Shown here: positions 4,801 to 58,788 of the stretch, one piece after another
Layout: the number at the start of each line of letters is the position of its first letter
Position numbering within the stretch: position 1 is the first letter of the stretch
DNA from: Escherichia phage vB_EcoM_Lh1B
DNA length: 64,000 nt
Reading direction: 5' to 3' (one strand)
Sequence record: OK428535.1
The notes under the pieces: generated by a model
What the model saw: only the letters and a program-made list of their open reading frames with translations
Database searches by the model: none
Told to the model about the DNA's origin: nothing
Made by a program: the position numbers and the translations under genes

Positions 4801-4827
4801 AGATAGATATTACCTAAGTGAGATGAG
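4801..4827 (+). promoter_or_regulatory. promoter-like motif AGATAGATATTACCTAAGTGAGATGAG
   Basis: Member of a recurrent motif family (see findings); sits between a terminator and the ATG at 4875. Confidence 0.5.
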
Positions 4828-4874
4828 AAAGCCTCATCTGAATTTCCCCAACTCGACTATAAAAGGTAAGCATC

Positions 4875-7765: not shown

Positions 7766-7784
7766 CATAGATATTATCTTCGTG
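7766..7784 (+). promoter_or_regulatory. promoter-like motif CATAGATATTATCTTCGTG
   Basis: Motif family copy 26 nt upstream of the ATG at 7810. Confidence 0.45.
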
Positions 7785-7809: not shown

Positions 7810-8130
7810 ATGACGCGCATGTTCTTTAATTTCTCTCCAGGGACAAATGAACAGATTGTGCCTGCGGACATGTTACTGTGCGCGATACAAGAAGTCATTT
7901 ATCCCGGCACGCATGAGTTTCCACGCGAGTGGACACGCATTGCCGAAAGTTATTTTGGCACGGAAGCGTGGTTTGTTATTTCGGCGTTGGGCCGAAACCA
8001 TAGCTATCCCTTTCATTACAAAAATGGAGTTGTGCAAACGTGGTCAGAATATACCTCGAACCAGCTGCGGTTCATTCTAGCTTCTGGGGGCCTGTCGATG
8101 CTTCCCAGTACGCTACCGCTCTGCGGATGA
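7810..8130 (+). CDS. hypothetical protein
   Basis: 106-aa ORF with strong TAAGGAG site. Confidence 0.45.
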   Translation: MTRMFFNFSPGTNEQIVPADMLLCAIQEVIYPGTHEFPREWTRIAESYFGTEAWFVISALGRNHSYPFHYKNGVVQTWSEYTSNQLRFILASGGLSMLPSTLPLCG

Positions 8131-16651: not shown

Positions 16652-16673
16652 AGATTGATATTATCTATGTGAC
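16652..16673 (+). promoter_or_regulatory. promoter-like motif AGATTGATATTATCTATGTGAC
   Basis: Motif family copy ~140 nt upstream of the ATG at 16806 (distal of two). Confidence 0.45.
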
Positions 16674-16747
16674 AGTTCCTGAGAAATGTCTGGACTATGT
16701 GCCTTGTAAGTAAGCGACGGCGTACTTGCATTCCATGAAATTACAGG

Positions 16748-16764
16748 CAGATATTATCTCTGCG
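16748..16764 (+). promoter_or_regulatory. promoter-like motif CAGATATTATCTCTGCG
   Basis: Motif family copy 44 nt upstream of the ATG at 16806 (proximal of two). Confidence 0.45.
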
Positions 16765-16805: not shown

Positions 16806-18659
16806 ATGGTAAAAATCGTTGACTCTAACAACAACGCTCAGCAGAACAACACTCAGACTCAAGACACCGCACCACTGGGCGGTCTGGGCAACGAGACTGT
16901 AAAAGTGCAAACTGCTGTGCCGGGTACTTCTACTGTCAGCCAATTCGATAACGCATTTGGCATCCGCAACATCAGCACCTATGCAATGCACTTCGTCAAC
17001 CTCCTGGACGAGCTGAAGAAAAGCAACGAATACCTCAACGCTTTCCGCTGGGGCACCATCGCCGGCGTGGGTAACGAAATGGGTTCCGCGGCGTATGTCG
17101 CAGGCCAATGGCAGGGCCACTGGCTGTATGGTATCATCTTCTTTGAACGCGGTCAGTCTCTGCGTCTGAAAGAAACTACCAACAACGGCCAGGAAGACTA
17201 CTACACCATCACTGAACTGTTCAACAAAGACGTGCTGGCAGTAGTACAGAAAAACATCATGGAAGCGCATGGTCTGACCAATGCGAACTTCATGATCATC
17301 AACTCCGTACCAGACCTGGGTAAAGTTCTGGATGCTGAGTGGGCACGTACTCTGATGGGTCAGATGATGATGGGCATCTTCGGTCGTATCGCAGGCTACC
17401 TGGGTACGCTGAACCTGCGTAAGCATGACCGTTATCAGGCTGCAGTAATGCCGCTGGAAGATGGTGCGGTTGTGGATGCTAACGGCCACGCACAACGTGC
17501 TGATTTCGCAATCACCGTTGAGCACAGCCCAAGCAACGTATCCGACGCCACTCCGACTCTGCTGGACACCAATCAGGTACAGGTGTATCCGCGTGTATCC
17601 GGTACTGGTTTCGTCAACATGCGTTTCACCGGTCAGAAGCCTGTCGTTAACGGCGTCTACGACCTGAAACAGCTGCAGGCTGAAATCGTAGTAAGTCTGG
17701 TCGATTCTCAAACTGAAGGTGCAATGGCACCGTATGAACGTCAACTGCTGCTGCTGGCTGCATTTGCAGAAATCGCGGCAATCGGTGGCTGGCGTGACCT
17801 GTTTGTGAAACGTCTGAACAAACAAGATCGCAAGTTCTCCCGTGTGGCAGAATACCTGTCCTGGGGTGCTGACGCTCGTCCTGATGTATCCAAAATCGAC
17901 GGTAGCCGTGAAGCTATCGAAGGTTGCCTGGATATGTTCGCACCGCGTGAAGCAGCACTGGTAGTTAGCCATCGTGCCGGTAACGGTCTGGGTGGTCTGT
18001 CTACTATGCTGTCTGAAATTGCGGTCGGTTACGACAACTCTCTGAAACAGCTGCTCGCTATTCTGAATTCCATGTCCCCGCGTGATCAGAACGGCGAAGT
18101 TGTTGCAGCGACCAGCTTCACTGCAGTATTTGCTTCTGCACTGAAAGCACAGCTGGGCGATGCCTTCAATGGTACCATCCATTGCAGCCACATCGTGAAA
18201 GCAGCCGTACCGACTGTTTCCGGTGTTTACACCGGTACTGCACAGAAACGTAGCTTCCAGGATATGGACCTGATTTCCGTTGTTACCAAACTGGGTGATA
18301 ACGCGAACGACGTCTATAGCTACCTGAACGCACAGTCCTACAGCCACCGTGAACTGAACGAGCGTCAACAGCGTATCTACATGCTGAAACTGGCCGCTTC
18401 TCTGTTCGCATCCAAAGCACCGCAAGCTACCGGTGAATCTCTGGATATGGCTATCAACCCGATCTTCGGTAAATGCCTGCTGGACTTCGTCCGTAACAAC
18501 TGCACCTGGTCTATGACTGGTGTAAATGCCTACAACACGATGGCGACCTCTCTGTTCTTCAACAACGGTGGGGAAGACTTCACGCTGTCTGGCAACGGCC
18601 TGTCTGCAAGCGGTTCCGATTTCGGTCTGGGCGTGTCTCTGAGCAACTTCAAACTGTAA
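16806..18659 (+). CDS. abundant early protein; candidate phage-nucleus shell (chimallin-like) or major structural protein
   Basis: 617-aa ORF with strongly E. coli-optimal codons (CTG, CGT, GGT, AAC, ATC, TTC), unlike neighbours; TAAGGAA site; two upstream promoter-like motifs; next to RNAP beta-prime-like gene. Confidence 0.7.
   Translation: MVKIVDSNNNAQQNNTQTQDTAPLGGLGNETVKVQTAVPGTSTVSQFDNAFGIRNISTYAMHFVNLLDELKKSNEYLNAFRWGTIAGVGNEMGSAAYVAGQWQGHWLYGIIFFERGQSLRLKETTNNGQEDYYTITELFNKDVLAVVQKNIMEAHGLTNANFMIINSVPDLGKVLDAEWARTLMGQMMMGIFGRIAGYLGTLNLRKHDRYQAAVMPLEDGAVVDANGHAQRADFAITVEHSPSNVSDATPTLLDTNQVQVYPRVSGTGFVNMRFTGQKPVVNGVYDLKQLQAEIVVSLVDSQTEGAMAPYERQLLLLAAFAEIAAIGGWRDLFVKRLNKQDRKFSRVAEYLSWGADARPDVSKIDGSREAIEGCLDMFAPREAALVVSHRAGNGLGGLSTMLSEIAVGYDNSLKQLLAILNSMSPRDQNGEVVAATSFTAVFASALKAQLGDAFNGTIHCSHIVKAAVPTVSGVYTGTAQKRSFQDMDLISVVTKLGDNANDVYSYLNAQSYSHRELNERQQRIYMLKLAASLFASKAPQATGESLDMAINPIFGKCLLDFVRNNCTWSMTGVNAYNTMATSLFFNNGGEDFTLSGNGLSASGSDFGLGVSLSNFKL
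17676..17733 (+). repeat. copy A of ~58-bp direct repeat (inside CDS 16806..18659)
   Basis: caggctgaaatcgtagtaagtctggtcgattctcaaactgaaggtgcaatggcaccg; about 90 percent identical to 18677..18732. Confidence 0.8.
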
Positions 18660-18732: not shown

Positions 18733-20250
18733 ATTGACAGAATGAGAAAGGTACCAAAATTCTACGGAATATCCGGCCGGTTGGTTAGTCAGGATAACTA
18801 TTTGTCCGATTTGCAAATAGAAGCTGCTGCCAAAGGTATTAAACCACCCACTATTATTAACGATGTCGCCGTTAACGGGGATGCGATCGAGGTTGCTGAA
18901 CTTATCGATCGCATGGTACAGAACAGAATCGTTGACGAAGAACTGAACTCTGCACCGATTTGTAGTTTGGATTGTCCGGCACCGATCGCGCATCGTTACA
19001 ATCTCGGTTGTAAGTGTCCGACGTGTGGCTATGTTGTAACTGAACATCGAATTGAATCCGATGTCTGGTTACGTGCACCTGATGAAATGGGTAACTTCGT
19101 CAACCCACGATTCTGGGCAATGTTCAATGCTTTCTTTAATAGCAAGTTGAAGAAGTTTGAACGTAACAAGGTCACTATCGAACGCGGTAATGACTTGATG
19201 ATGTGGATGATTGACCCGTATTACCGTATAGAAGAACCAGACGGTAAACGCGCACATGCTGTGAAACGTGTATTGGAAGAACATGGTTTCGTTCGTGGCT
19301 TGCGCAATCTGGTTGATAACCACGTTAGTATCTTTAACATCCTTACCACGCCAGAAGCCTGGAAGGAAATCTTCGCACCTAATCGGCATAACGCCGCTGA
19401 AGGTGAACGCTTACGTTTACAATGGAAGGAGCTATTCGAAACGCAACGTCACGCATTCTTTCCAAGACATTTACCGCTAATCTCCTCTAAACTTATCGTT
19501 ACTGAGGAAGGTCGTCGTGGTGTCATGGTAGACCCAGTGTTCACGGGTGCTATTGACGCGGTGAAAAATATCGCGTTGCTCTATACGCGGCGTAAAGCGA
19601 TCGAACCACGTTTTCTGATTAGTCGTGCTTTGAAGGCGAACCGTCAGCTAACGTACTTCCACATGGACTTCCGTCGTGAGTCTATGGAAGGTAAACCGGG
19701 TGACTATCGTGCGAAATTGGGTTCTACCCATATCCCGTTCGGTGGTCGTGCAACCATCTCACCTATCTCAGAACCACACGATGCCTGGAAGTTAAAAGCA
19801 CCGTGGCGTTGGATGGTTGGGTTGATGTCGACCCACATCGAGAACAAACTGCTACGACGGGGTTATTCGTCGCGGCAATGTGAGCGTATCGTTGCAAAAG
19901 CGGCAATGCAGTATGACCCGCTTGTAGACGAAATCTTTAAAGAACTGATTCGTGAATCCCCAGGCGGTCTTGGGATCATGGTCATACCGTTACGTAACCC
20001 AACGCTGGTACAGTTGTCTATTCAAACGCTGTACATCGATGAAGTTGTTACCGATGTTAACCAGTGTTCGCTGCGTATCTCTGACCGTGTGATCAAGATG
20101 GCTAACGGTTCGAAAAGAGCCCCATCGGACGGGAAACCTCTGATGCGTATTCTCCTGAAATGCTGGGAAACCCTAAAGCGTATCTACCAGAAATGGGGAC
20201 GAAAGTCTGAAACAACAGATACGATGGCCTACGCTAAACAATACTGCTAA
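18724..20250 (+). CDS. multisubunit RNA polymerase beta-prime-like subunit, N-terminal fragment
   Basis: Zinc-ribbon CSLDC...CKCPTCGYVVT (cf. beta-prime CxC...CxxCGVEVT); ELIRESP and RNPTLVQLSIQT match beta-prime EVIREHP / RAPTLHRLGIQA. Confidence 0.65.
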   Translation: MAPIDRMRKVPKFYGISGRLVSQDNYLSDLQIEAAAKGIKPPTIINDVAVNGDAIEVAELIDRMVQNRIVDEELNSAPICSLDCPAPIAHRYNLGCKCPTCGYVVTEHRIESDVWLRAPDEMGNFVNPRFWAMFNAFFNSKLKKFERNKVTIERGNDLMMWMIDPYYRIEEPDGKRAHAVKRVLEEHGFVRGLRNLVDNHVSIFNILTTPEAWKEIFAPNRHNAAEGERLRLQWKELFETQRHAFFPRHLPLISSKLIVTEEGRRGVMVDPVFTGAIDAVKNIALLYTRRKAIEPRFLISRALKANRQLTYFHMDFRRESMEGKPGDYRAKLGSTHIPFGGRATISPISEPHDAWKLKAPWRWMVGLMSTHIENKLLRRGYSSRQCERIVAKAAMQYDPLVDEIFKELIRESPGGLGIMVIPLRNPTLVQLSIQTLYIDEVVTDVNQCSLRISDRVIKMANGSKRAPSDGKPLMRILLKCWETLKRIYQKWGRKSETTDTMAYAKQYC

Positions 20251-20453
20251 CGGTTGTGATAATGGGTAATCAGCAGCGAAGCCTCGTGAGAGGAACGTTC
20301 AACGACTATCGCTGAAATGCGAGTAGGGGTCCCAGTGGACTTCGAAGTGGGAGAACACCTAAGGCGATAGCTATGGTGAAGATATAGTCTGTGCCTTATC
20401 GAGAGATAAGGAGGGTGTCTTAGCACACCTGCTGTATACGGAAACGGTATACG

Positions 20454-20693
20454 ATGGACAAACAGGATTTCGATGGTGACCAGTTCCAGGTACGTTTGCC
20501 AGTCGATGAAACTGAGATGAAGTTGGCGCTCCAATTCCGTCCAGATAACGGCTTTATGTCTTCTACTGATGTGGACCGCGTAGAACACGGCATGGTTTTA
20601 CATAACGAGCTAATCAGTATGCAGAACCAGTTCCTTATTGAAGCAGATGAGGATGATGAAGAAGGCATTCCGTTGGAAGCGGTGATGGGCTAA
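20454..20693 (+). CDS. hypothetical small acidic protein
   Basis: 79-aa ORF, weak ribosome-binding site. Confidence 0.3.
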   Translation: MDKQDFDGDQFQVRLPVDETEMKLALQFRPDNGFMSSTDVDRVEHGMVLHNELISMQNQFLIEADEDDEEGIPLEAVMG

Positions 20694-20706
20694 TAGGAGT
20701 ATTGTA

Positions 20707-21288
20707 ATGTGGCTACAAGGTAGCACGGTGTGGACGAAACAGACCGAAGGTAGCGGGGCACTCAGCGTATTCAAAGAATCGTTTTCGCTGTCTAGCCTGG
20801 CACCCGATCTCGTTGACCGTGTAAAAGAACATTGTCAGGACTTAATCTCACTGGAGCGTTTCCGTGAAACATTCAGTACCGCACGTAAATTACGTTATAG
20901 CGATGCGGTAGAGATGGTAAGACAGATCGAAGAGTTGGGTGAATTCCAGTTCGCCAATGCTGCTTTACAGCCATTCCTCGTTGCCATGCCGGAATATCGT
21001 AAGTTGTATAATGACGGTATGGCGACTGGTTATGAGAACGGCTTTTCGCGGTTGGATGTGTTCAAAGGCAATGCGTATATGCGTACCGATGACCACTTCC
21101 GCGAAGCAACATCGGGCATTTCGACGAAGTACGACGAAGATAAGATTTGGCAATGGGCTACCAATGAAGATCGTGCAGTACGACTGAGTCGAATCGATAA
21201 AGTGGATATTCAACTTAACTGGGCACGCATGTCAGCTTTCGACTGGGAAGATGATGATCCCTGTTCGGAACTTGGCGCTACGTGTTAA
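20707..21288 (+). CDS. hypothetical protein
   Basis: 193-aa ORF, AGGAG upstream. Confidence 0.5.
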   Translation: MWLQGSTVWTKQTEGSGALSVFKESFSLSSLAPDLVDRVKEHCQDLISLERFRETFSTARKLRYSDAVEMVRQIEELGEFQFANAALQPFLVAMPEYRKLYNDGMATGYENGFSRLDVFKGNAYMRTDDHFREATSGISTKYDEDKIWQWATNEDRAVRLSRIDKVDIQLNWARMSAFDWEDDDPCSELGATC

Positions 21289-21293
21289 AAAAG

Positions 21294-21320
21294 ATGGGGA
21301 TTCGGCCCCCCTTTTTTTCT
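21294..21320 (+). terminator. rho-independent terminator
   Basis: Hairpin GGGGA-TTCG-GCCCC then CCTTTTTTT. Confidence 0.6.
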
Positions 21321-21370
21321 TCACTGGGGGCTGTATGCAGCATCCTACCTTGAATTTGACAGGAGCTAAC

Positions 21371-21757
21371 ATGATTGCGGTAGGAACCTTATCCACACGT
21401 GGCTGGGCACGTACACCCCAGGAAAAGGCGCGTGAGTTGATGAACCATTACACCGAGTCTGGCTATAGCCAATCGGTGGTATATCGTGGGAACATTAAAT
21501 CACTTGCGTATACGCAAGCTGTGTTTGCACAAGATCCCGACGGGATGGTTGCCCAGATTAAAATGGATTTGGAGAACCTCTACGGGAACGTATTTCCTGC
21601 TGGCGTTGAAGTTGAAACCAGCTGGGAGTTTTTAAAAGATTCAGATGTGCGTTACCGCATCTTCATTAGTGTCCGTGTGCAAGAAGTTGTAGACGGTGAA
21701 TGGTACGATGTTGAGCGGTACGTGGATACCGAGTCGAGTGCGATTGAGGATATGTAA
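21371..21757 (+). CDS. hypothetical protein
   Basis: ATG at 21371 with AGGAG 6 nt upstream; track ORF start 21251 lies in the terminator. Confidence 0.45.
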   Translation: MIAVGTLSTRGWARTPQEKARELMNHYTESGYSQSVVYRGNIKSLAYTQAVFAQDPDGMVAQIKMDLENLYGNVFPAGVEVETSWEFLKDSDVRYRIFISVRVQEVVDGEWYDVERYVDTESSAIEDM

Positions 21758-22431
21758 TGAGCCAGGAACCTACATTTAACGGTGTACCGTTAAGTCAGAT
21801 GAATGAGCAGATGCGCTTTGAGTATAACAAACTCAAAGAGATTGAAAACGATTTGGCGGAAAGCCAGAACGTCTGTAGTGTCTTCACCGAAGCACAGTTC
21901 CGTCGACAGGGCTTACCACTGCTGTCCGGGATGCTTGATGGTACTTTTAACGAAGAGACCTGGACGGCTTACGTAGGAAGTCCATTTGTACCCCTACAGA
22001 TTGTGGACGATGCTGATAACAGCAAACTGCTATTTACCATCCCTGCTCTGCTGAACACCGGCCGCTCGTTAATCACCGTTGACGGCGAACCCTCCCTCTC
22101 CGATGAGACTGAGTACATCCGTCGTCAGGTTGATGTGATTGCAACCGTCGGTGAAACCCAGATGTACAAGATGATCGATTACACCTTAACCGGGATCGAA
22201 AATATGTCTCTGGCTGAAAATTCAGTTCGTGCGAAGTACATTATTGACTTGCTGAACTGGATTTTCCGACGCTACGGTGTGGGTGGTCAATTGCCATATC
22301 CGGAAGGGTTGGTTGAATACGTCGATAAAATTACCGGCGGTAAAAACACGGCGACAGCTGCAGAGACTTCGGTGCAAGCCCCAGCTCAAACGCAGCCAAT
22401 CGTAGGGATCGGTGATGGAGAAGATTACTAA
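21757..22431 (+). CDS. hypothetical protein
   Basis: TAATG overlap, GAGGA upstream. Confidence 0.5.
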   Translation: MSQEPTFNGVPLSQMNEQMRFEYNKLKEIENDLAESQNVCSVFTEAQFRRQGLPLLSGMLDGTFNEETWTAYVGSPFVPLQIVDDADNSKLLFTIPALLNTGRSLITVDGEPSLSDETEYIRRQVDVIATVGETQMYKMIDYTLTGIENMSLAENSVRAKYIIDLLNWIFRRYGVGGQLPYPEGLVEYVDKITGGKNTATAAETSVQAPAQTQPIVGIGDGEDY

Positions 22432-23563
22432 ACCTCCTAAGAAACCAGAAGGCGTTAAGCGCCTTTTGAACACTAACGATATCCATTTGTTGCATAAGCG
22501 TGTGCCTACTTGGCACATCGTGGATGTGATACGTGAGGTACTCATTAGCTGCGAAAATACGCTTGACGCCTTTTATATAGCAGGGGATTTATTTGATGAT
22601 TCCCGACATCTTCGCCAGGAAGATTCTCAAGAAGCTGTGGGCTTCTTGACGTGGTTGCTCCAGTGGTCTAAGGCCACTAATACCGCAGTTCGCATCGTTG
22701 AGGGAACACCATCCCATGACCATGGCCAGTCCAAAATAGTTGAGTCGCTGAACATCAGTATAGGCGCAGACTGTTTGTATTTGGCAGGGATCGGGATATT
22801 TTACGATCCGGCTCTCGATGCGATGGTAGGTTGGGTGCAGGACGAATATAAAGCTGCTGGCGTCGATGAAATTAATGCTGCTGCCACTGAGGCAGAAATG
22901 GCAGAACTGATGGCGACACGAGGCTTGGAGAAGTTAGACTTTATCTTCATGCACGGCTGCTTCCAGTTTCAACTCCCTGTCGAGTCCCCTCGTTCTTTCC
23001 ACGAGGAGTTCTGGTTGCCGAGAGTCAAGCACCTGATATTTATCGGGCATGACCATCGACCCAAGGAATTAGACAAGATAAGAGTTGTAGGTAGTCCTGA
23101 GCGACTATCTCAAGGTGAAGAGGAGGACAAAGGCGTAGCTCTTGTCGATTTCACCGATACGGTTGCCAGGGATTATTTCCTGGTTAACCCACGCGCGTGC
23201 CCGCAGAAAAAGATTCGGGCACAGGAAGACTTTGATGCGCAGTTAGCAGCTTGTCTTTCTGCATTAGAATACATCGACAATCATCCCTCGTCCGCTATTG
23301 GGCGATTTGAGGTCGAGTATTACGCAGGCTCACCGATGGCCGAATACGTCAGTCGGTGGAAAAAAGAATACACGTTCCACATTTCTGGAGAGCGTGTGCG
23401 CTCCTCTGAAGAGGAGGAGTTGTTAGTGAAGAGTTTTTCGAACGAAGCCCCAGTGTACGAAAAACCTACTCCTGAGAACTTCGAACGGTTGGTTCTCGAA
23501 GAGCTAACATCAGTGAAGTACGACCCTGATGTTGTTACTGCAATCATTAGGAAAATAGAATGA
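22415..23563 (+). CDS. calcineurin-like metallophosphoesterase, SbcD/Mre11-type nuclease candidate
   Basis: Ordered motifs NDIHL (DxH), AGDLFDD (GDxxD), GTPSHDH, FMHGCF, GHDH. Confidence 0.6.
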   Translation: MEKITKPPKKPEGVKRLLNTNDIHLLHKRVPTWHIVDVIREVLISCENTLDAFYIAGDLFDDSRHLRQEDSQEAVGFLTWLLQWSKATNTAVRIVEGTPSHDHGQSKIVESLNISIGADCLYLAGIGIFYDPALDAMVGWVQDEYKAAGVDEINAAATEAEMAELMATRGLEKLDFIFMHGCFQFQLPVESPRSFHEEFWLPRVKHLIFIGHDHRPKELDKIRVVGSPERLSQGEEEDKGVALVDFTDTVARDYFLVNPRACPQKKIRAQEDFDAQLAACLSALEYIDNHPSSAIGRFEVEYYAGSPMAEYVSRWKKEYTFHISGERVRSSEEEELLVKSFSNEAPVYEKPTPENFERLVLEELTSVKYDPDVVTAIIRKIE

Positions 23564-24396
23564 ATCCAATCAGTGTTGATCGCACTTTCGGGTTCTATTC
23601 AGTGTCAATCGCCAGTTCGCTGGCGTTTGAAGGTCTGCTGCATACCGGCGAATACGCCGACTGGAAAGGCGAATTGCCTATCCATTCCTATCAGGAAATA
23701 TACCTGAATCTCCGGACATTGTTCCGTAACGCCTTCTATGCGTTTGAAGAGAATAGAGAACGGTTAACACCCGACGTGATGCTAACATCGATTGAAGAAG
23801 ATATTAATAATCTTACGGCTACCGCGAGAGCGGTAGCCCCTTCGGTGTTATGCGTTCCGTACCTTTGTAGCTATCGTAGCGCTAACAAAGTGTTTCCCGA
23901 AGCCTCGTTCAAAAACATTGCAGGCGGTCAGGATAAGATGACGCCAAACCAGCTGCACTATAATGCACTGGAACACGACACCTTAAAAATGTACGGTGAG
24001 AAACACGAAAATGACTTCCGTCAATTCGATGTTTTCCCAGAGGGTAGCCGCGACACACTGTTACTGACCCACATGCCAGCTGATCTCCTGGCACGTAAAG
24101 ATTTCCCTAAACTGGGTTTGTTGGAATCGCACACCGGTAAAGTGAAAACACAACTGGAGTGGTACACCAAACTTAACGGGAAACCCCAACATATTCCGTT
24201 TAACAAAGCGTTCCTGACGTTGTTTGGCGACGGGATAATGTTTTCACCCCTCGATCGCAAAACGCGTGGGGTGGTGTTAAAAACCGCAGAGAAGTACAGC
24301 TGGAAACAGGATACCACAATGGACCGTATTTATAACTGTCTAAAACTGGTGAATGAGCCATTTGTAATTGAACTGCTCCGCAGGCTTATGAAGTAA
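23560..24396 (+). CDS. hypothetical protein
   Basis: 278-aa ORF, ATGA overlap with phosphoesterase gene. Confidence 0.5.
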   Translation: MNPISVDRTFGFYSVSIASSLAFEGLLHTGEYADWKGELPIHSYQEIYLNLRTLFRNAFYAFEENRERLTPDVMLTSIEEDINNLTATARAVAPSVLCVPYLCSYRSANKVFPEASFKNIAGGQDKMTPNQLHYNALEHDTLKMYGEKHENDFRQFDVFPEGSRDTLLLTHMPADLLARKDFPKLGLLESHTGKVKTQLEWYTKLNGKPQHIPFNKAFLTLFGDGIMFSPLDRKTRGVVLKTAEKYSWKQDTTMDRIYNCLKLVNEPFVIELLRRLMK

Positions 24397-24461
24397 GTTA
24401 AAATTTACGTTAGTGGGAAATCATGTGTGAACCACTAGACTGCTTTTCCGAAAAGGATGAA

Positions 24462-25115
24462 ATGATGATTAACCAAGAAATTTTCAAAGACAAATGGCTT
24501 TACCCGCAGACCGAACCGGATCAGCAAAACCGTACGCGTAAACTCAACATCGAACCGAATGATTTCAACGGCGATGTTGAAACTATGAAGTTTAGCTACT
24601 CCTTTGGTAAGGGCGAAGGTCTCTATTTCTCTGCGCCAATTACGGTTTGTCGTACCATTATCGAAGCTCTGCAGGATTGTCTGCGTAAGAGCGAAAAGAG
24701 TATGCTGAAGTTTACTAACGAAAACGGCAACAAACCGCCCGTTAGTCTGATTGTTGGCCGTGAAGACAACCTGGTACCGTTCATCGCTATTGCCGGTGAA
24801 ATCCAGGGCGTTGGTGCCCGCCAGAAGAAGTTCTACTTCTCCTACCCGAAAGGCTTCCGTATTTTCCGCGACGGTCAGCAGGTTTCTGATTTAGAACTTG
24901 CCGAGCGCTGCGCACGTGCGTTTATCACTAACTTCGAGAAGTTCTTACAGAACCTGGAAGAGAAATATAAGCCGCGTGAATTCCAGCAAGGGGGTGGTAG
25001 CTTCGGTCGTGGCGGATACGGCGGTGGCCAGGGTGGCGGTCAGCGTAGCGGCGGTTATCAACAGCAACAATCTGCACCTCCAGCAACCACTGATTCTTAC
25101 GACGAATTCCTCTAA
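24462..25115 (+). CDS. nucleic-acid-binding-like protein with Gly/Arg-rich tail (SSB-like, tentative)
   Basis: C-terminus QQGGGSFGRGGYGGGQGGGQRSGGYQQQQSAPP...DSYDEFL (Gly-rich linker, acidic/hydrophobic tip); optimal codon usage; start may instead be 24423. Confidence 0.5.
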   Translation: MMINQEIFKDKWLYPQTEPDQQNRTRKLNIEPNDFNGDVETMKFSYSFGKGEGLYFSAPITVCRTIIEALQDCLRKSEKSMLKFTNENGNKPPVSLIVGREDNLVPFIAIAGEIQGVGARQKKFYFSYPKGFRIFRDGQQVSDLELAERCARAFITNFEKFLQNLEEKYKPREFQQGGGSFGRGGYGGGQGGGQRSGGYQQQQSAPPATTDSYDEFL

Positions 25116-25200
25116 GAAACAAAATAAAAAATACGCCCAAGGGAAACCTTGGGCTATTAACGCTTATGCGTGGTCCTGCAACACACACTGTAAGAAGATT

Positions 25201-25221
25201 TAGATAGATATTATCTCAGTG
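25201..25221 (+). promoter_or_regulatory. promoter-like motif TAGATAGATATTATCTCAGTG
   Basis: Motif family copy 30 nt upstream of the ATG at 25251. Confidence 0.5.
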
Positions 25222-25250
25222 CAATCGACTATTCGCGGAGTTCAACTATA

Positions 25251-26885
25251 ATGAAAATTATGAAGATTAAAGACCGGATGACAATCGAGCATCATGGTCA
25301 AGAGGTCACATTTATTGGCTTACGTTATCGGAAGGATAACAACGCACCCGACTACATCACTGTTAAAGGTAAACAGATTGCACGCGACAACATTCTCTTC
25401 ATGGAATTACAACGCGTGTGGGATTATTTAACGCCAGACGAACAAGATGAACTGTTCATGGCGTATCTGATGCTGGACGAGCTGGCAAACGAATCGACGG
25501 AAACGCAGCGTAAGCACATGCCGAAGATTGTGCAGACGATTGCGAAGTTCCACAAGGCCGAAGTGTATCGTAAGCTGTATCCCATCGATAAGCTGTGGAT
25601 TCCGCAGAACATGGAAGATACGCACGATGAAATGAACAGTAATTATCCGGAAGCGATGACGTACATTCGTCCGGACTATTACGAGTTGTTGATACTGGTC
25701 CTGATGATTAAACCGTATATTCCGGTGTTCCTCACCATGGGGACGTTCCCGATAGGTAAGAACTTGCCAATCGAAACACATCGGAAAATGGTGTACAATC
25801 TGACATACTGTCTGGAGATGCTTCAAGACACAGAAGTCATGTCTTTACCTGCTATTCCGAAACTGCGTGGGTTCCTACAGACAGTGATGGAAAAGGTAGA
25901 AAAAGAACTGGCAAACAAAGGTACGAACAGCACCAGTTTGTCGGTACTAGCTACGGTGCGGGGCTATGGCACGGATATGATGGAAGATTATATCCTGGCG
26001 TATGCTATTATTAAATTGTTGGCTGTCCGTGAAGTCGGTGGTGAATTACCGGTTGAAATCATGGTTAACAACAATATCGTCACCGGCATGTATTTTCTGG
26101 TTAAACAAGAGATTGAAACAGGTTTTGCAAACAAAATCTCTAACCAGCCGGTGCTGTTAAAAGCGCATCCGGAAAGTGTGGTATTCAATGGCGAAAAGGG
26201 TAAGATAAACGCCATGGATTTGGTGCAGGCACGTTCTCCTGCACAGATGAAAGAATACGTCCGTACCGAGTACGTATTTAAAGAATACCGCTCTTTCTTG
26301 AAAACAATGCGTCTGGATAATGCCGCTCCAGCAGATGTTAAGTTATTGATTGATTCGCAACTGGCAACACATGACGGTCCTGTCTATACGTTGCACGAAT
26401 GGTTAGTCGCATTAGCACTCCATCGTAGCGTGCATTATAAGACGTATACTGAATGTGGACCAGAAGCGTTTCGCTACGGTATGGCGTTGGCACAGGCAAC
26501 TTATCTCAATTATGGAATGTATGACGTTGCGCAACTGTTAAGTTGCAATATGGTGCGTTCTGAGATGTCTGCCGGTTATGCAGCCGACCCAATTCGATCT
26601 GAACTCAAAGCAGATTTAGATAGATATTATCTTCAGGAGTATCGCAACCCGCGTAATCTCGAACCGCAATCTACACCACGGGAATCACTGACCTTGTTAC
26701 ACAAGGATCACATCAACCCGTATCTGTTCCATCTCAGGGCTACACCAGAAGCAGCTGCGCTGCTGAAGTGTGAGACGGATCAGCCAAACTATATACCTCA
26801 CTTGTCACTGCACAATAGCCTGGCGGAGTTTATGGTGTTGAATGCACGTCGCAAGTTAGAAGAAGTTGAATGGTTTAATTCTTAA
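25251..26885 (+). CDS. hypothetical protein
   Basis: 544-aa ORF; contains an intragenic promoter-like motif near its 3' end. Confidence 0.6.
   Translation: MKIMKIKDRMTIEHHGQEVTFIGLRYRKDNNAPDYITVKGKQIARDNILFMELQRVWDYLTPDEQDELFMAYLMLDELANESTETQRKHMPKIVQTIAKFHKAEVYRKLYPIDKLWIPQNMEDTHDEMNSNYPEAMTYIRPDYYELLILVLMIKPYIPVFLTMGTFPIGKNLPIETHRKMVYNLTYCLEMLQDTEVMSLPAIPKLRGFLQTVMEKVEKELANKGTNSTSLSVLATVRGYGTDMMEDYILAYAIIKLLAVREVGGELPVEIMVNNNIVTGMYFLVKQEIETGFANKISNQPVLLKAHPESVVFNGEKGKINAMDLVQARSPAQMKEYVRTEYVFKEYRSFLKTMRLDNAAPADVKLLIDSQLATHDGPVYTLHEWLVALALHRSVHYKTYTECGPEAFRYGMALAQATYLNYGMYDVAQLLSCNMVRSEMSAGYAADPIRSELKADLDRYYLQEYRNPRNLEPQSTPRESLTLLHKDHINPYLFHLRATPEAAALLKCETDQPNYIPHLSLHNSLAEFMVLNARRKLEEVEWFNS
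26617..26637 (+). promoter_or_regulatory. intragenic promoter-like motif TAGATAGATATTATCTTCAGG
   Basis: Motif family copy inside CDS 25251..26885, ~265 nt upstream of the next ATG. Confidence 0.4.
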
Positions 26886-26897
26886 GGAGTATTTAAA

Positions 26898-28598
26898 ATG
26901 CAGCTTGTAAATCTACTGATGTATCCGGTCTACGATGTTCCAGAGCAAGTTCGTCGCCGCATCGGCTTTAACGCATCGACGGGTGCACTGGATGACTTAG
27001 CAGCAGCGGTTGAACTGGGCGGGGAAAAAGCTGTGGGAACACAGCAGTATCAAGAAGCATTATCTGCCATCGTGGGCTTCGATGGCACCCAGAATGGTTT
27101 TGAGCGTCCATTCATCAACGTGTCCGATGATGACAATCGTCCTGTACAGTTCCAATGGGAATCACGTGATACCGGTATCTTTAACTTCGTGGCGGTGTTT
27201 ATTGCTAAACCTCTGAATGCAACACGCACTCAGGAAACGCAATACATCGTATCCGGTTATACCAGTCAGGCAGAAACCAGCCTGGGTAGCTTGCTGCCGG
27301 ACGATATGGTGTTGTACATTAACGACATCTACGGCTTACAGGCAACGTATACACACGATGCCCTGGGCGGCAAAACATTGAACCCAGACTCATTCCGTCT
27401 ACTGGATAACTACGTTTTATCGAAAGCGCTGTCTGTTGAAGGTCAAACAGAAAGTACGGTAGATATCATTTCGATCGCGAAAGCGGCGGATATGGTAAAA
27501 CGTATTGAAATGAATAGCGGTGAGAAGTTCGTCCCAACGAGCGACTCTGTGCTATCCGCAACCAGTAGCTCTGCACCACAGTTGATGGTATCCCAACTCC
27601 AGCGTCCAGAAAACTACGTATCTGCCATCAGTAATGCGTATCTGGCAAGCTCTGGGGTAGATACCGAACTCGGTAGCGTGGAAAGCTTCTTTGCAGGTAA
27701 TAACTCCATCGGCGTTGAATCTGAATTGAAGCAACGTGGTGTTATCCGTAACTACAGCAACCACGAACTGATTGCTGCGATGCGTCAAGCACTCCAGAAC
27801 GGGATGTCTGATGTATCTGGCGGCTGGAAAGCAACCAGTAAGGCGACGTTCCGTTTGGCTGATTTGCGTAATGCGATTGTCAACCCAATGCGGTTGGATG
27901 AATGTATCCGTGAATCGCTGGCGCTGGCAAGTCGCCGTGGGTTGGGTGCAGGGCTGGTTAACCAAACCGACCACTGGATTGGACGTAATGGCTTCTCCAC
28001 GCAGGGTAGTCTAGTTGCGTATGATCTGGCTATGTCTATCGGGCCGATTATGTCACGTAACCTGATTGGTGAAGTGAGCTTTGTCTTTGATAACCGCAAC
28101 ACAGATATCATGATAGAGCCTACGCTGGAAGTTATTCCTAACTCAGTCAGCAGCATCACGCACCATCAGTTACCTGCTGCATTAGGTCGTCGTTTCTTGC
28201 AGAACATGAAAGAAGCGATGGTTCAGGTTACTAAACATAACCATATTCGCTGCCACATGCTGGTCACCGCATTGTTGGGGACCGTTACTCGTATTGAAAT
28301 CCGTGTCGACGACGAACCGCTGGAATATTACACCTACGCGTCGTTTATGCAATTCCGTCTCCATACCGGCAACACCACCGATCTCAAATACGTTGGTGAG
28401 CTGGCACAGAACACCGCAACGCTGTTGAAAGCCGTGGAAGAAGGTTATACAGAATTCGAGAAAGGCCAAGGCCGGGGTCGAATGCTATCTAACATTCCAA
28501 CTAACACAGGTGGCTTAGATCCTCTTGGAGGTCTTGACCTGGGTGGTGGCTTAGCCGGTTTAGGCGGAAACGGACTCGGCAACGGTCTCATTGATTAA
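26898..28598 (+). CDS. hypothetical protein with Gly/Leu-rich C-terminal tail
   Basis: 566-aa ORF behind CTTAAGGAGTATTTAAAATG; tail GGLDPLGGLDLGGGLAGLGGNGLGNGLID. Confidence 0.6.
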   Translation: MQLVNLLMYPVYDVPEQVRRRIGFNASTGALDDLAAAVELGGEKAVGTQQYQEALSAIVGFDGTQNGFERPFINVSDDDNRPVQFQWESRDTGIFNFVAVFIAKPLNATRTQETQYIVSGYTSQAETSLGSLLPDDMVLYINDIYGLQATYTHDALGGKTLNPDSFRLLDNYVLSKALSVEGQTESTVDIISIAKAADMVKRIEMNSGEKFVPTSDSVLSATSSSAPQLMVSQLQRPENYVSAISNAYLASSGVDTELGSVESFFAGNNSIGVESELKQRGVIRNYSNHELIAAMRQALQNGMSDVSGGWKATSKATFRLADLRNAIVNPMRLDECIRESLALASRRGLGAGLVNQTDHWIGRNGFSTQGSLVAYDLAMSIGPIMSRNLIGEVSFVFDNRNTDIMIEPTLEVIPNSVSSITHHQLPAALGRRFLQNMKEAMVQVTKHNHIRCHMLVTALLGTVTRIEIRVDDEPLEYYTYASFMQFRLHTGNTTDLKYVGELAQNTATLLKAVEEGYTEFEKGQGRGRMLSNIPTNTGGLDPLGGLDLGGGLAGLGGNGLGNGLID

Positions 28599-28610
28599 GG
28601 ATTATTAACC

Positions 28611-29978
28611 ATGAAATTGATTGAATTCTACCGTTCGTTTCTGACCTCGCTCGGATACGGATTCGAAGGTGACATGCTGACTATCGATGATGGTCATCCG
28701 GCAATGTTCACCTACAACAAAGTGAAGCGCCGCTTGGTGCTTCCAACTGCAGCGATGATTAAGCGTGGGTTGGAAGATGACGAAGGTAGTGAATGTCATG
28801 CGTTCCACCCGCTGTGTGAATCGGTGCTGGCTGGCGAATCTGGAACGATTCGTTTCCTGAAGAAAGCCATCAACGCGAACCTCTTCCTGAAAAGCTTCGA
28901 GTTAATCGATGCGATTTTGGAAACAGCAGCCGAAGGAAAAAATATCCGTCTGGCAGCGTACAAGAAGTTTTTAAGCGATGTGGTTTGTGCTGACCTGAAA
29001 GATCCAACGATGGATAAGAAACTGGTTCAGAGCTGGCACGCAGTGAAGAACTACGTTTACGGGTTGCTGGAAGAAGATAAAAAGACAAAGATCACCAGTA
29101 TCTTCATCTCCAGCGATATGACCATTGAAGGTATCAAATATATCCGTGTGGCGAACTACAAACACATGTTTGAAGAAGAGTCACTGGATGGTACGGCAAC
29201 ATTCTTCGGTGCCAAGCTCCAGCGTAAGCAGGATAAGGTCATTATCTTTAACCTGCTAACTGCAGTGTTTGGTTGGTATCCTTCGGTTACTGGTTCTAAC
29301 GATCCGCGTCCGTACTTCGGTTCTTTGGCACGCGGTTGGGCACAATACGTGACCAACTACAATCAAGTGGTTCGTGGTCTGCGTGACCACACTCCACTGC
29401 GTCCGTTAGAAGAAGAATGGATTGGCCAACTGGATAACATGAGCGTTTATGATAACGTTATCCAAACTCTGCCGTATAATACCGGCCCACGCACCGATCA
29501 GGCAACAGACACCACCGCAACGGATTTCCGTATCGGGCGTACACCTGCCGGCACAAAGCCGGTCGTTGCTTTAGCTTCTCAACAAGCTCCGCAGGAAAAT
29601 CTTGATCTCAACGATCCGGTAAACTATTTCCGTGCGAAGAAAGCGCAACAGGCGTCTTCAGCTAATAGCTTCAATGCGTTAGCACCGAAGATTCAGGAAG
29701 CGCTGCGTGAGAACAACGGCCATTTACCGAAAGGGACAATTAAAGAACTGTCTCTCGGTGAAGCGCTGCGTGGTAATGCGGTGACGAAAGAAAGTGGTCT
29801 GGGTTCTGGTTTGCTGGTAAGTAGTAATAATCTCTTGGGGGGTAGCACGCAGTTGGGCGGCGGTAGCACCAACCTCTTAGGAGGGAGTAGTGACGTGTTA
29901 GGTGGTCTGGGTGGTTTAGGTGGCGGAAGTAGCAGCAGTTTAGGCAACCTACCATTCTCATCAGCTAATTTACGTTAA
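28611..29978 (+). CDS. hypothetical protein with Gly/Ser-rich C-terminal tail
   Basis: 455-aa ORF; tail LGGSTQLGGGSTNLLGGSSDVLGGLGGLGGGSSSSLGNL. Confidence 0.6.
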   Translation: MKLIEFYRSFLTSLGYGFEGDMLTIDDGHPAMFTYNKVKRRLVLPTAAMIKRGLEDDEGSECHAFHPLCESVLAGESGTIRFLKKAINANLFLKSFELIDAILETAAEGKNIRLAAYKKFLSDVVCADLKDPTMDKKLVQSWHAVKNYVYGLLEEDKKTKITSIFISSDMTIEGIKYIRVANYKHMFEEESLDGTATFFGAKLQRKQDKVIIFNLLTAVFGWYPSVTGSNDPRPYFGSLARGWAQYVTNYNQVVRGLRDHTPLRPLEEEWIGQLDNMSVYDNVIQTLPYNTGPRTDQATDTTATDFRIGRTPAGTKPVVALASQQAPQENLDLNDPVNYFRAKKAQQASSANSFNALAPKIQEALRENNGHLPKGTIKELSLGEALRGNAVTKESGLGSGLLVSSNNLLGGSTQLGGGSTNLLGGSSDVLGGLGGLGGGSSSSLGNLPFSSANLR

Positions 29979-29985
29979 GCGTTAG

Positions 29986-30015
29986 AAAGAAGGGACTGGG
30001 CGTCCCTTCTTTTTT
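29986..30015. terminator. bidirectional terminator
   Basis: Hairpin GAAGGGAC-TGGG-CGTCCCTTC with A-run before and T-run after. Confidence 0.65.
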
Positions 30016-30339
30016 TCAAGATTCTACGATAGTCGATAAGATGTTACTTACCACACCGACACTAGGAACCAATAAGGTCCTTATCTCTGGCGTGAAATCA
30101 AACGGAGTAGAAATTCCGTTCATTAACATCATCGGATAAATAATACTATTATCGTACTGTTTGAGACGACAGTACGCGTAGAAACTGTGTACCTCTGGGT
30201 AGGCATATTTTGGGTCAACAACTTCTTCTGTAGTATCTGGGTGTTTGCGAAGGAAGTCTGTATAGTCATGCAACACCTTATACTTGGTCGAATCAGGCGA
30301 AGGTATCATTTCGGATAAGGTAGCAAATTTATCTAGCAT
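30016..30339 (-). CDS. hypothetical protein
   Basis: 107-aa minus-strand ORF, AAGGAGAG upstream. Confidence 0.5.
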   Translation of the reverse strand: MLDKFATLSEMIPSPDSTKYKVLHDYTDFLRKHPDTTEEVVDPKYAYPEVHSFYAYCRLKQYDNSIIYPMMLMNGISTPFDFTPEIRTLLVPSVGVVSNILSTIVES

Positions 30340-30360
30340 CGTCTCTCCTTAAAATAAAAC

Positions 30361-30375
30361 AGATAGATATTATCT
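30361..30375 (+). promoter_or_regulatory. promoter-like motif AGATAGATATTATCT
   Basis: Motif family copy 30 nt upstream of the RNAP beta-like gene. Confidence 0.5.
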
Positions 30376-30405
30376 TACCGAGGTAACCAAAAGGAGCATT
30401 TACGA

Positions 30406-32643
30406 ATGAAAACACCAGTCGAACTCATGTCAAGCGTTGCTGACCGTGAGGTGAATATCACTGGCGTATCTGGGGCACGTGCCTCAATGGTGGGTGGACA
30501 TATGAAGTCGGCGGTACCACTGGACAATCCAGATCCGACTATCCATTTTACCGGCGCTGATGTGAACTACCACGATTATTGTTTTAACGATATCGTGGAA
30601 GACAGTGGTACCGTGTGCAGTTACACAACCAAAGAAGGTGTTACTCGTGCAGCTGTTTTTGCACGCTATGGTCGTGAAGGGGATCACGATCCGCTCCAAC
30701 ATGTTATCTTCTTCACGCGCGCAGATTTAACCAACCAGCGCAAAGTGATGATTGATGTAATCGATATCAAGTATTACACCAACCACGATAACATTTTCTC
30801 GTCTAAGAAAGAGGCTACTGGGAAACTTCAGGCGTTGCTGCGCGGGCAGACTCAGCACCTGGAAAAAGATGAAATGCTTACCGTGCTGCCGGCACAGAAA
30901 GACGGTGAGTTTGTCGATGGGGTCAACCTGCACACCGTGACAATGTCGCACCCGGACATTATCGAGGACTCGTACACCATCTCCGAAACTGCAGCGAAGG
31001 CGATGCACGCTTATGGTTTGCGTGCAATTGACTTTACCCTCCGTGACGACGAGTACCTGCTTGACACGTATGGGACAACGGGTATTGATGGCGTTCGTCG
31101 ACCACAGTACCTACCCAATAAAGGACAGGCAATTCGTGATGATGGGTTGGTTATTGCCGCGCGCCGTTTCGATAAGCTATGGGCAGCCATTGACTCGCAC
31201 GTAGGTGAAACACAACATATCTCTCCGCACTTCGACCGTTGTGAGTATGTTGATGCTGACCCTGAGCATTACAAAGCGCGTCAGGCTGGCGACTTTGAAA
31301 AGATGGAACGTACTGGTTCTCGTGTCGTTGATATTCAGGTATGGCGGGACGAAACCAAATGCGATCGTGGTGTTAACAATATCGCATGTACCGAAGAGAA
31401 CAAACGCGAGTTAGATCACTACGCGAACGCTTTGAAACGTTTTTACAATGATATCGTGCGGTTCTATTTTGCGATGTCCAAGGACAAGAATATTGTCTGG
31501 TCACCGAAAGCGTTTGAGATTCTTGACAAGGCGTTCTGTTCTGAGACGTATGAAGTCTATAACGACTTCCGTGAAGAGATTGGTCGTGAATACGATGAAG
31601 CCATGCGTAAAGGTGAGTATAACCGTTCTGCTGATAAGAACGTGTTGAACAAACTGGCGCAGCCGGTTCAGCGTGGTCTCTGGGACCCAATTGGTAGCTA
31701 CACGATACGCATCGTGGTACGTTATCCAATCCCAGTTACCGTCTCATCGAAAATCACCGACCGTTCAGGTACAAAAGGTATCGTGGGCGCAGTGCGGCCT
31801 GATGAAGAAATGCCGATTAACGAGTTCGGAGAACGTGTGCATGTCATTCGTTCCATGAACGCCGTAATTCGTCGTTCGACTTATGCTGCGCTGTTCCACA
31901 TGTATTGGTCTGCTGCATCCGAGCAGTTGAAGATGCGGTTGAAACCATTACTTGCTGCCAACCAGGTTGATGAAGCCTGGGAAATCCTGATGGACTATAT
32001 CGATCGCTATAACCCACGCTGGACATTCTATCTCAATGCCAGTCACCCAGATACTGAGTCACGTCTGGAACTCTTTAAAGAGATTTACGACTTCACGATT
32101 CGTATCTGGCTTCCCCACGAATTGAATGCCACCCAGGTAGAAATCTGCCGTGCTCTAGGCGAGTATGCACCACGCAAGTCTAAGCTACTGATTACTAACT
32201 ATCAGGGTGAGAAAGAGTGGACGAAGAACCAGTTCTACGTCGGCATGGTAGAGACTCTGCGCCTGGATAAAACCGGTCGTGAGTTCTCCAGTATCTCATC
32301 GATGTACACGAACTATTTGGGTTGTATTGATGCATCCAACCAAGGACGTGGTTCATATCCGATTAACCTGAAAGGGTTGAAGTGGGGTGGTCCTTCCGAG
32401 CAGCGTCTTACCGACGGCTTTGGTCCGGGCAACTTCCCCGAAACTCATGACCGCGCTAATAACCCTGCGGTACACCGTGCGATCGTAACGGGGTTGTATA
32501 ACTCGCCAACACCAACCAATCCGGGGGTGCTGGTCGATCGTAAGAAACTGCCAATGGGAGATTCGCAGATTGACAGGATGATACGTAACATCCATCGCTG
32601 TGAAGGTTTTGAATTAGTGCGTCCAATTCGGGAGGATAAATAA
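30406..32643 (+). CDS. multisubunit RNA polymerase beta-like subunit (C-terminal portion)
   Basis: KITDRSGTKGIVGAVRPDEEMPINEFGERVHVI...SMNAV parallels beta [33 protein letters not shown]...SRMNIG. Confidence 0.7.
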   Translation: MKTPVELMSSVADREVNITGVSGARASMVGGHMKSAVPLDNPDPTIHFTGADVNYHDYCFNDIVEDSGTVCSYTTKEGVTRAAVFARYGREGDHDPLQHVIFFTRADLTNQRKVMIDVIDIKYYTNHDNIFSSKKEATGKLQALLRGQTQHLEKDEMLTVLPAQKDGEFVDGVNLHTVTMSHPDIIEDSYTISETAAKAMHAYGLRAIDFTLRDDEYLLDTYGTTGIDGVRRPQYLPNKGQAIRDDGLVIAARRFDKLWAAIDSHVGETQHISPHFDRCEYVDADPEHYKARQAGDFEKMERTGSRVVDIQVWRDETKCDRGVNNIACTEENKRELDHYANALKRFYNDIVRFYFAMSKDKNIVWSPKAFEILDKAFCSETYEVYNDFREEIGREYDEAMRKGEYNRSADKNVLNKLAQPVQRGLWDPIGSYTIRIVVRYPIPVTVSSKITDRSGTKGIVGAVRPDEEMPINEFGERVHVIRSMNAVIRRSTYAALFHMYWSAASEQLKMRLKPLLAANQVDEAWEILMDYIDRYNPRWTFYLNASHPDTESRLELFKEIYDFTIRIWLPHELNATQVEICRALGEYAPRKSKLLITNYQGEKEWTKNQFYVGMVETLRLDKTGREFSSISSMYTNYLGCIDASNQGRGSYPINLKGLKWGGPSEQRLTDGFGPGNFPETHDRANNPAVHRAIVTGLYNSPTPTNPGVLVDRKKLPMGDSQIDRMIRNIHRCEGFELVRPIREDK

Positions 32644-58725: not shown

Positions 58726-58750
58726 AGATATATATTACCTAGGTGAGATT
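58726..58750 (+). promoter_or_regulatory. promoter-like motif AGATATATATTACCTAGGTGAGATT
   Basis: Near-identical to the copy at 4801; 40 nt upstream of ATG 58789. Confidence 0.5.
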
Positions 58751-58788
58751 GCATTGGTAATCTTTTAACCGACTATCACTTAAGGAAT

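Follow-up and report, generated by a model that had tools for sequence, protein, structure and literature searches.

An early-promoter-like element within the coding sequence of a gp68-type RNA polymerase subunit gene in Escherichia phage vB_EcoM_Lh1B and related jumbo phages

Does a promoter-like sequence that lies entirely within a coding sequence act as a promoter, or does it serve some other function? The question is raised by an open reading frame (ORF) of 544 amino acids (aa), located at 25251-26885 on the + strand in Escherichia phage vB_EcoM_Lh1B (sequence record OK428535.1), from which a stretch of 64,000 nucleotides (nt), referred to here as the window, was analyzed. An earlier examination of the bare sequence (the sequence-only reading) had noticed a copy of a promoter-like motif inside this ORF and offered two explanations: an internal promoter that gives the downstream Gly-tailed proteins a transcript of their own, or a motif with a function other than transcription initiation. 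The window is 99.6% identical to the SPN3US-type Salmonella jumbo phages (Seoulvirus; phiKZ relatives). The ORF is an SPN3US gp30-type gene, a homologue of phiKZ gp68, which is the fifth subunit of the phiKZ non-virion RNA polymerase (nvRNAP): it gave a match to PHIKZ068 by tblastn, PHROG 3209 is common to both, and a phmmer search matched it to the PHIKZ068 chains of the solved phiKZ nvRNAP (7OGP/7OGR/8QUE; E=2e-6). We consider it likely that the element at 26607-26637 (+), which corresponds to codons 453-463 of this gene, works as an internal early promoter for the virion RNA polymerase (vRNAP), with a start at approximately 26637, and that it adds transcripts for the downstream gp69 and gp70 homologues. 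The first of the two explanations is supported by conservation at the DNA level and by the match to a published early-promoter consensus, which together argue strongly for it.

The 21-mer TAGATAGATATTATCTTCAGG was found at 26617-26637 on the + strand exactly as first described, and it lies in the coding frame of the ORF, where it encodes ...K ADLDRYYLQEY... (protein context ...KADLDRYYLQEY...). The distance to the next gene, originally put at about 265 nt, was measured at 261 nt from the end of the motif to the ATG at 26898. The description as a full-consensus copy holds for the 13-nt core, which is perfect and scores above the median, but not for the flanks, which are the weakest of all 23 genomic copies (TTTAG instead of TTTCAG upstream, and AGG instead of GTG downstream). 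In 100 dinucleotide-preserving shuffles no match to the 21-mer was found at ≤3 mismatches, and at the same threshold TAGATAGATATTATCTTCAGG finds itself alone in the window. The recurring unit is the 13-nt core with degenerate flanks, and the motif family was accordingly scanned by k-mer, core and position weight matrix (PWM) searches. The intragenic element, as delineated by sequence, PWM score and cross-genus conservation, is made up of a -30 AAA (26607-26609), a -20 region GATTTAG (26613-26619), the 13-nt core ATAGATATTATCT (26620-26632), and a terminal TCAGG whose last base is the predicted start, G 26637 (±2); every part lies on the + strand. Two guides served to place the start: the centering of the core near -10 (PMC7598289) and the GTG with which the published consensus ends (PMC7058600).

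With ≤2 mismatches allowed, ATAGATATTATCT occurs at eight + strand sites in the window (4803, 7767, 16654, 16747, 25204, 26620, 30363, and 58728). Including two palindromic echoes on the - strand, the core matches total 10 vs. 1.06 expected, and 0/100 shuffles reached 10. All + copies except 26620 are intergenic and are found 27-60 nt ahead of + strand start codons. The SPN3US genome was assembled from five pieces and then scanned: it contains 22 intergenic copies and exactly one intragenic copy, all on the + strand. The intergenic copies in SPN3US stand just ahead of + strand genes, nvRNAP subunit genes among them, and the intragenic copy shares the orientation of the genes downstream of it, as do all 23. 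The SPN3US consensus is AAaanaTttCAGATAGATATTATCTangtGA; six of the 22 intergenic copies form a subclass ATATATATTAC[CT]T, and both G and T occur at core position 4 (ATAGAT and ATATAT subclasses). A 47-nt PWM was built from the 22 intergenic SPN3US copies, which scored 20.0-49.0 bits in leave-one-out tests. The intragenic site scored 27.6 bits, within this range, and no unrelated site among 480,734 positions scored ≥20 bits. For the core alone, it matched at 13/13 positions and reached 22.2 bits compared with a median of 20.2.

The intragenic core AGATA-T-TATCT is a perfect 5+1+5 inverted repeat, and the reverse-strand echoes in the scans reflect this symmetry. The element may on these grounds be a conserved DNA signal that is not a transcription start, either the site of a phage DNA-binding protein or a site for polymerase binding, pausing or blocking of read-through that comes from the promoter upstream, and the conservation described below would agree with it, in that it reveals selection on the DNA and not a function. 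We regard this explanation as unlikely. The palindrome is not kept among the copies: it is lost in the ATATATATTACYT subclass, arm complementarity is only 3/5 in the six copies of the ATATATATTAC[CT]T subclass, and the Derbicusvirus consensus ATATATGTTATC is asymmetric. The flanks are also asymmetric (TTTCAG upstream, GTGA downstream), and 23/23 copies are co-oriented with the downstream gene; neither conserved symmetry among copies nor a lack of orientation bias, the features of a palindromic operator bound by a dimeric protein, was found. The motif fits the published early-promoter consensus, and its phiKZ and 201phi2-1 relatives have mapped starts.

The same core contains TATTAT, a 5/6 match to TATAAT, and a host sigma-70 promoter using it as the -10 box for the bacterial RNA polymerase was considered as well. 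This is highly improbable. A sigma-70 scan of 20000-32000 called none of the copies at 25204, 26620, and 30363, nor any site at 26600-26640, the aligned copies do not have a TTGACA-like -35 hexamer at the right spacing (16-18 nt), and the conserved positions extend outside the sigma-70 elements. Furthermore, phages infecting Salmonella, Erwinia, Cronobacter, and Klebsiella all carry the motif, which is similar to that of Pseudomonas phages, and phiKZ-type phage transcription is independent of the host RNA polymerase (PMC7598289).

The sequence-only reading had suggested a comparison of synonymous sites in homologous genes. The gene was aligned in nine phages: the window, the Seoulvirus members SPAsTU and pEa_SNUABM_29, phiEaH2 (Erskinevirus, 58% protein identity), ChrisDB and Huxley (Machinavirus, 50%), Wellington (47%), and Phobos and CR5 (Derbicusvirus, 37-39%). 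The result is strongly in favor of conservation, with a codon-invariant core, a peak of synonymous identity and a rare Arg codon. The seven non-Derbicus phages, which cover Seoulvirus, Erskinevirus, Machinavirus, and Wellingtonvirus (47-84% protein identity), all read GAT AGA TAT TAT C, and the neighboring codons have diverged. Only 15 of the 133 degenerate columns with an invariant amino acid are codon-invariant, and four of the 15 are the adjacent codons of the motif (permutation P=7e-4). The longest invariant nucleotide run of the 1.6-kb gene is GATAGATATTATC, with 13 nt vs. a mean longest run of 6.2 in shuffled codon columns (P=2.5e-4). Synonymous identity (10-codon sliding) peaks at the motif with 0.85-0.92, compared with a gene mean of 0.46-0.49, and returns to 0.39-0.51 downstream of it; this drop indicates a constrained element of ∼36-40 nt. 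The -30 AAA (a Lys codon) is invariant in nine/nine phages, and so is the G at core +5, the predicted start, though the encoded residue varies (E/A/D). A scan of IMG/VR by protein alignment gave thirteen loci, all of which retain the site; new among the matches were four metagenomic relatives of the same genera, which carry the motif as all close ones do, and one distant contig. We concluded that the nucleotides of the site are under purifying selection beyond its coding needs.

Could the conservation be explained by chance together with protein and codon constraint, i.e., by a DRYY that has to be encoded in this way? D, R, Y, and Y are conserved as amino acids in seven of the nine aligned phages, as this explanation would have it, but we find it extremely improbable. 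The same residues elsewhere in the gene are not codon-invariant (single-codon invariant columns: Arg 0/8, Asp 0/3, Tyr 1/12), AGA is rare (4% of the Arg codons counted over the large genes of the window), and both permutation tests and the shuffles speak against chance. Distant homologues differ at D, R, and the first Y: phiKZ, Eowyn, and a Vibrio phage have gp68 homologues that lack the motif and read DELYP, NEQYP, and SDTYP, respectively. Given the variable residues in these motif-less homologues, the protein needs only Y-P at that spot, and it is in the promoter-bearing homologues alone that D, R, and the first Y are fixed. From this comparison, the element either arose in an existing coding region of the ancestor of the enterobacterial clade or was lost elsewhere. 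As a side observation, TATATTAC stands ahead of the gp68 homologue in both phiKZ and Eowyn (phiKZ piece 4405-4412; Eowyn piece upstream of 2459), and TAGATATATTTCATAGTAGTGAG stands ahead of that in the Vibrio phage (piece, upstream of 2474). An early-type promoter ahead of the gp68 homologue appears to be conserved family-wide, even where the internal copy is absent.

In Derbicusvirus (Phobos and CR5), the Arg is replaced by Ile (AGA to ATA), giving ACATATATTATC or AAATATATTATC. The intergenic promoters of Derbicusvirus read ATATATGTTATC twice and ACATATATTATC once, and the intragenic versions fit these. Strict covariation in this genus was considered and dropped on account of the G and T that SPN3US accepts at the same core position; the R to I exchange thus indicates retained promoter compatibility and not a compensatory switch.

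Conservation of the intragenic core equals or exceeds that of the gene's own intergenic promoter, and in Machinavirus and Wellingtonvirus the intragenic copy is the better conserved of the two (ATAGATGTTATCT and ATAGATTTTATCG in the intergenic position). This comparison bears on another explanation, according to which the site, as a cryptic or very weak copy of the promoter, yields little transcription and is kept by short-patch gene conversion or mild selection. Its flanks, the weakest of all copies, and its unusually long leader would be in line with such a copy, and so would its identity over 21 nt with the promoter 1.4 kb upstream: AGATTTAGATAGATATTATCT is common to the intragenic copy and its own gene's promoter (25196-25216 = 26612-26632), which makes them the most similar pair of copies, and SPN3US differs at one of those positions. 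However, gene conversion alone would not hold the site down to 47-58% protein identity in four genera in which the flanking codons have fully diverged, and a weak copy is not expected to outdo the gene's own intergenic promoter in conservation as it does in Machinavirus and Wellingtonvirus. We consider this explanation quite unlikely.

If the element is an internal early promoter, what would it transcribe? The first downstream gene (26898-28598, +) is the homologue of phiKZ gp69 (PHROG 3141 common to both) and has a Gly-rich C-terminal tail; gp69 of phiKZ is Imp1, a nuclear import factor (bioRxiv 10.1101/2024.03.27.586873). The second one (28611-29978, +) is the homologue of phiKZ gp70 (PHROG 3520 in common), has a Gly/Ser-rich tail, and is the final gene ahead of the convergent minus-strand ORF 30016-30339. 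The phiKZ proteins gp67, gp69, and gp70 each have PHROG-sharing counterparts beside ORF 25251-26885, and the order gp67-gp68-gp69-gp70 followed by nvRNAP genes is conserved, being identical in all aligned phages. The gene identities in this cluster are established by homology; Pfam gave 0 matches for any of the five proteins examined, and a PDB sequence search with the downstream protein found no match. The gp68 and gp69 homologues are spaced by 12 nt in the window and by 11-40 nt in the relatives. With a gap of 12 nt, a promoter for the downstream pair has to lie inside the upstream ORF.

In the proposed mechanism, the multisubunit vRNAP, packaged in the virion and injected, would recognize the intragenic site in the same way as the 22 intergenic copies, by means of the AT-rich core centered near -10, a TTTCAG-like -20 element, and an A-rich -30 element. 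Initiation would take place at about G26637, 5 nt past the core and at the last G of the consensus GTG. The resulting transcript would begin with a leader of ∼260 nt, formed by the tail of the gp30-type ORF, and would then run through the imp1/gp69-like and gp70-like genes as far as the convergent ORF 30016-30339. The downstream pair would be transcribed from both the promoter at 25204 and the internal one, and the polymerase subunit gene from 25204 only; the outcome would be extra, separately started early transcripts for the pair relative to the polymerase subunit. That the motif is a promoter of the injected vRNAP is argued by strong analogy (phiKZ, 201phi2-1, and AR9); where transcription would start at the internal copy, and how expression would change, are likewise inferred.

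Several points weigh against an active internal promoter. The intragenic copy has the weakest flanks of the 23 copies (upstream 6.8 bits vs. a minimum of 9.1; downstream -1.3 vs. 0.1), which is as expected where a site must also encode protein. Its predicted leader of ∼260 nt (261 nt to the ATG) is long compared with 27-60 nt for the other copies, and a promoter of the same class is located only 1.4 kb upstream, which makes it less than obvious why a second would be needed. Searches of the literature gave no mapped transcript 5' ends for any SPN3US-like phage, and that the motif is a vRNAP promoter in this phage group is in itself a bioinformatic assignment. Purifying selection, in turn, proves that the DNA matters and says nothing of its role.

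Three other candidates were rejected. For the 3' part of the ORF, neither an overlapping gene nor a structured RNA was supported: downstream of the motif there are only alternative ORFs of 22-34 aa, folding gave a z-score of -0.64, Rfam yielded no match, and no extended synonymous constraint is seen. An N-terminally truncated product made by in-frame restart is implausible because the sole in-frame ATG leaves ∼18 residues. The third, a gene-fusion relic, was dismissed because the alignment with phiKZ gp68 extends through the C-terminal region, the orthologous ...YP... segment included.

The remaining + strand copies of the motif in the window precede the following genes. The copy at 25204-25216 is upstream of the gp30-type gene itself, that at 30363-30375 is upstream of the nvRNAP beta-like gene 30406-32643, ATAGATATTACCT at 4803-4815 is upstream of ORF 4875-5825, and the copy at 7767-7779 is upstream of ORF 7810-8130. 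The copy at 58728-58740, ahead of ORF 58789-59550, belongs to the ATATATATTACCT subclass containing the phiKZ core TATATTAC and has its SPN3US equivalent at 56296. Tandem copies at 16654-16666 and 16747-16759, with cores 93 nt apart, precede ORF 16806-18659 (617 aa, SPN3US gp22), which sits between an nvRNAP subunit gene and a gene whose counterparts in CR5 and Huxley are annotated as DNA polymerase. By synteny, this ORF lies at the locus described for the nuclear-shell protein chimallin and is a candidate for it; its protein gave no match in a PDB sequence search or in Pfam.

Two further features were observed in the leaders that follow early-promoter copies. A box AATCGACTAT(T) is found 15-30 nt before the ribosome-binding site at 4851, 25223, 58767, and 59578 (+) in the window and at 65415, 94241, 113988, and 223279 in SPN3US. 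Upstream of the gp30 homologue it is kept in Seoulvirus and Erskinevirus and not in Machinavirus and Wellingtonvirus. Its count in the window is not significant (7 vs. 3.6 expected at ≤1 mismatch), and its positioning alone is suggestive, perhaps of a second (middle) promoter or of a leader signal. After many intergenic copies, a short hairpin is located directly at the predicted transcript start, e.g., GAGATGAG-aaagc-CTCATCT and GAGAGTTAA-ccat-TAACTCT (window ∼4820-4840 and ∼58745-58765; SPN3US 94241, 113988, 165689, and 223279). The intragenic copy does not have such a hairpin.

Regarding the genes of the cluster, the three non-polymerase genes (24423-25115, 26898-28598, and 28611-29978) all encode low-complexity Gly-rich C-termini, e.g., ...GGLDPLGGLDLGGGLAGLGGNGLGNGLID, and their phiKZ homologues have tails rich in N/G, Q/P, and M/Q/G instead. 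Disordered tails appear to be a conserved trait of these nuclear-import-associated proteins, with a lineage-specific composition. The GenBank/RefSeq start for SPN3US gp30 is placed 27 nt further downstream (23886, 535 aa; window 25278). The ATG at window 25251 (544 aa) is preceded by GGAG, and the same start is used in all relatives; the longer 544-aa form is probably correct.

For the enterobacterial nucleus-forming jumbo phages as a whole (Seoulvirus, Erskinevirus, Machinavirus, Wellingtonvirus, and Derbicusvirus), a wider proposition can be put forward, the chances of which we judge to be evenly balanced. The gene for the second polymerase's specificity subunit would have a vRNAP promoter built into its coding sequence, and this promoter would dictate three residues (D-R-Y, with the rare AGA) and create a separate early unit for imp1 and its neighbor. 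The import machinery would then be expressed independently of the polymerase subunit and probably more strongly, an arrangement that the Pseudomonas phiKZ lineage would not have. If the promoter is active, the operon map of the gp67-gp70 (Imp6/nvRNAP subunit/Imp1/gp70) locus in SPN3US-like phages would be redrawn, and a nuclear import factor would be transcribed separately from the polymerase subunit. The site would offer a clean case of dual coding in five genera, in which a promoter of ∼30 nt constrains codons, and even amino acids, in an essential polymerase-subunit gene. It would also be relevant for recoding, knock-down, and engineering of the locus, as "silent" changes at codons 457-461 would not be silent. 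The scan provides 23 high-confidence candidate vRNAP promoters for the SPN3US-like phages. No description of the intragenic site or of the SPN3US motif string was found in the literature searched; early-promoter motifs of jumbo phages and promoters inside phage ORFs are both known already, and the site would not surprise a specialist.

How does the element compare with known systems? Early promoters have been predicted for the jumbo phages N1M2 (TBYAWWWWWTTTCARRYAKATATTATYWAAGTGWA) and OBP, with the shared consensus TTTCARRYAKATATTATYWAAGTG, and early-promoter motifs have been given for 201phi2-1 (...TATATTACDWHDGTG) and phiKZ (TATATTAC) (PMC7058600). The SPN3US consensus fits that of N1M2 and OBP, being nearly the same sequence, and is related to the 201phi2-1 and phiKZ motifs; the ATATATATTACCT subclass of SPN3US contains the phiKZ core itself. 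An AT-rich motif of ∼10 nt centered near -10 is present ahead of early operons in every jumbo phage that encodes an RNA polymerase (PMC7598289), and wherever transcripts were mapped, such a motif proved to be the early promoter (PMC7598289; PMC8244752; PMC11512511). The early promoters of phiKZ and 201phi2-1 have conserved -10, -20, and -30 regions (PMC11512511; PMC8244752). The motif family described here shares this -10/-20/-30 architecture, its restriction to one strand, and its position ahead of early operons, including nvRNAP subunit genes. The copy at 26607-26637 differs from the phiKZ-related early promoters in that it is intragenic and not intergenic, with the next start codon ∼260 nt away, and phiKZ has no motif copy at the orthologous place in gp68.

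Promoters inside ORFs have been found in jumbo phage AR9, in which mapping of transcription start sites placed 13 late promoters within ORFs; these are used by the non-virion enzyme, have the consensus AACA-N6-TA/G, and were suggested by the authors to give N-terminally truncated proteins (PMC5312081). Common to AR9 and the SPN3US-like phages would be a phage-specific promoter of a multisubunit phage RNA polymerase located inside an ORF. The element described here differs from the AR9 promoters in its early class, in its unrelated consensus, and in having no plausible in-frame restart, so that its likely targets are the downstream genes. In compact phage genomes the placement has a further parallel, in that several T7 RNA polymerase promoters lie within genes. 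As in T7, the packed genes leave no intergenic room, and the promoter for the downstream genes would be dual-coded sequence at the end of the ORF before them; the putative enzyme here is a multisubunit virion RNA polymerase as opposed to the single-subunit T7 enzyme, and the promoter sequence is unrelated.

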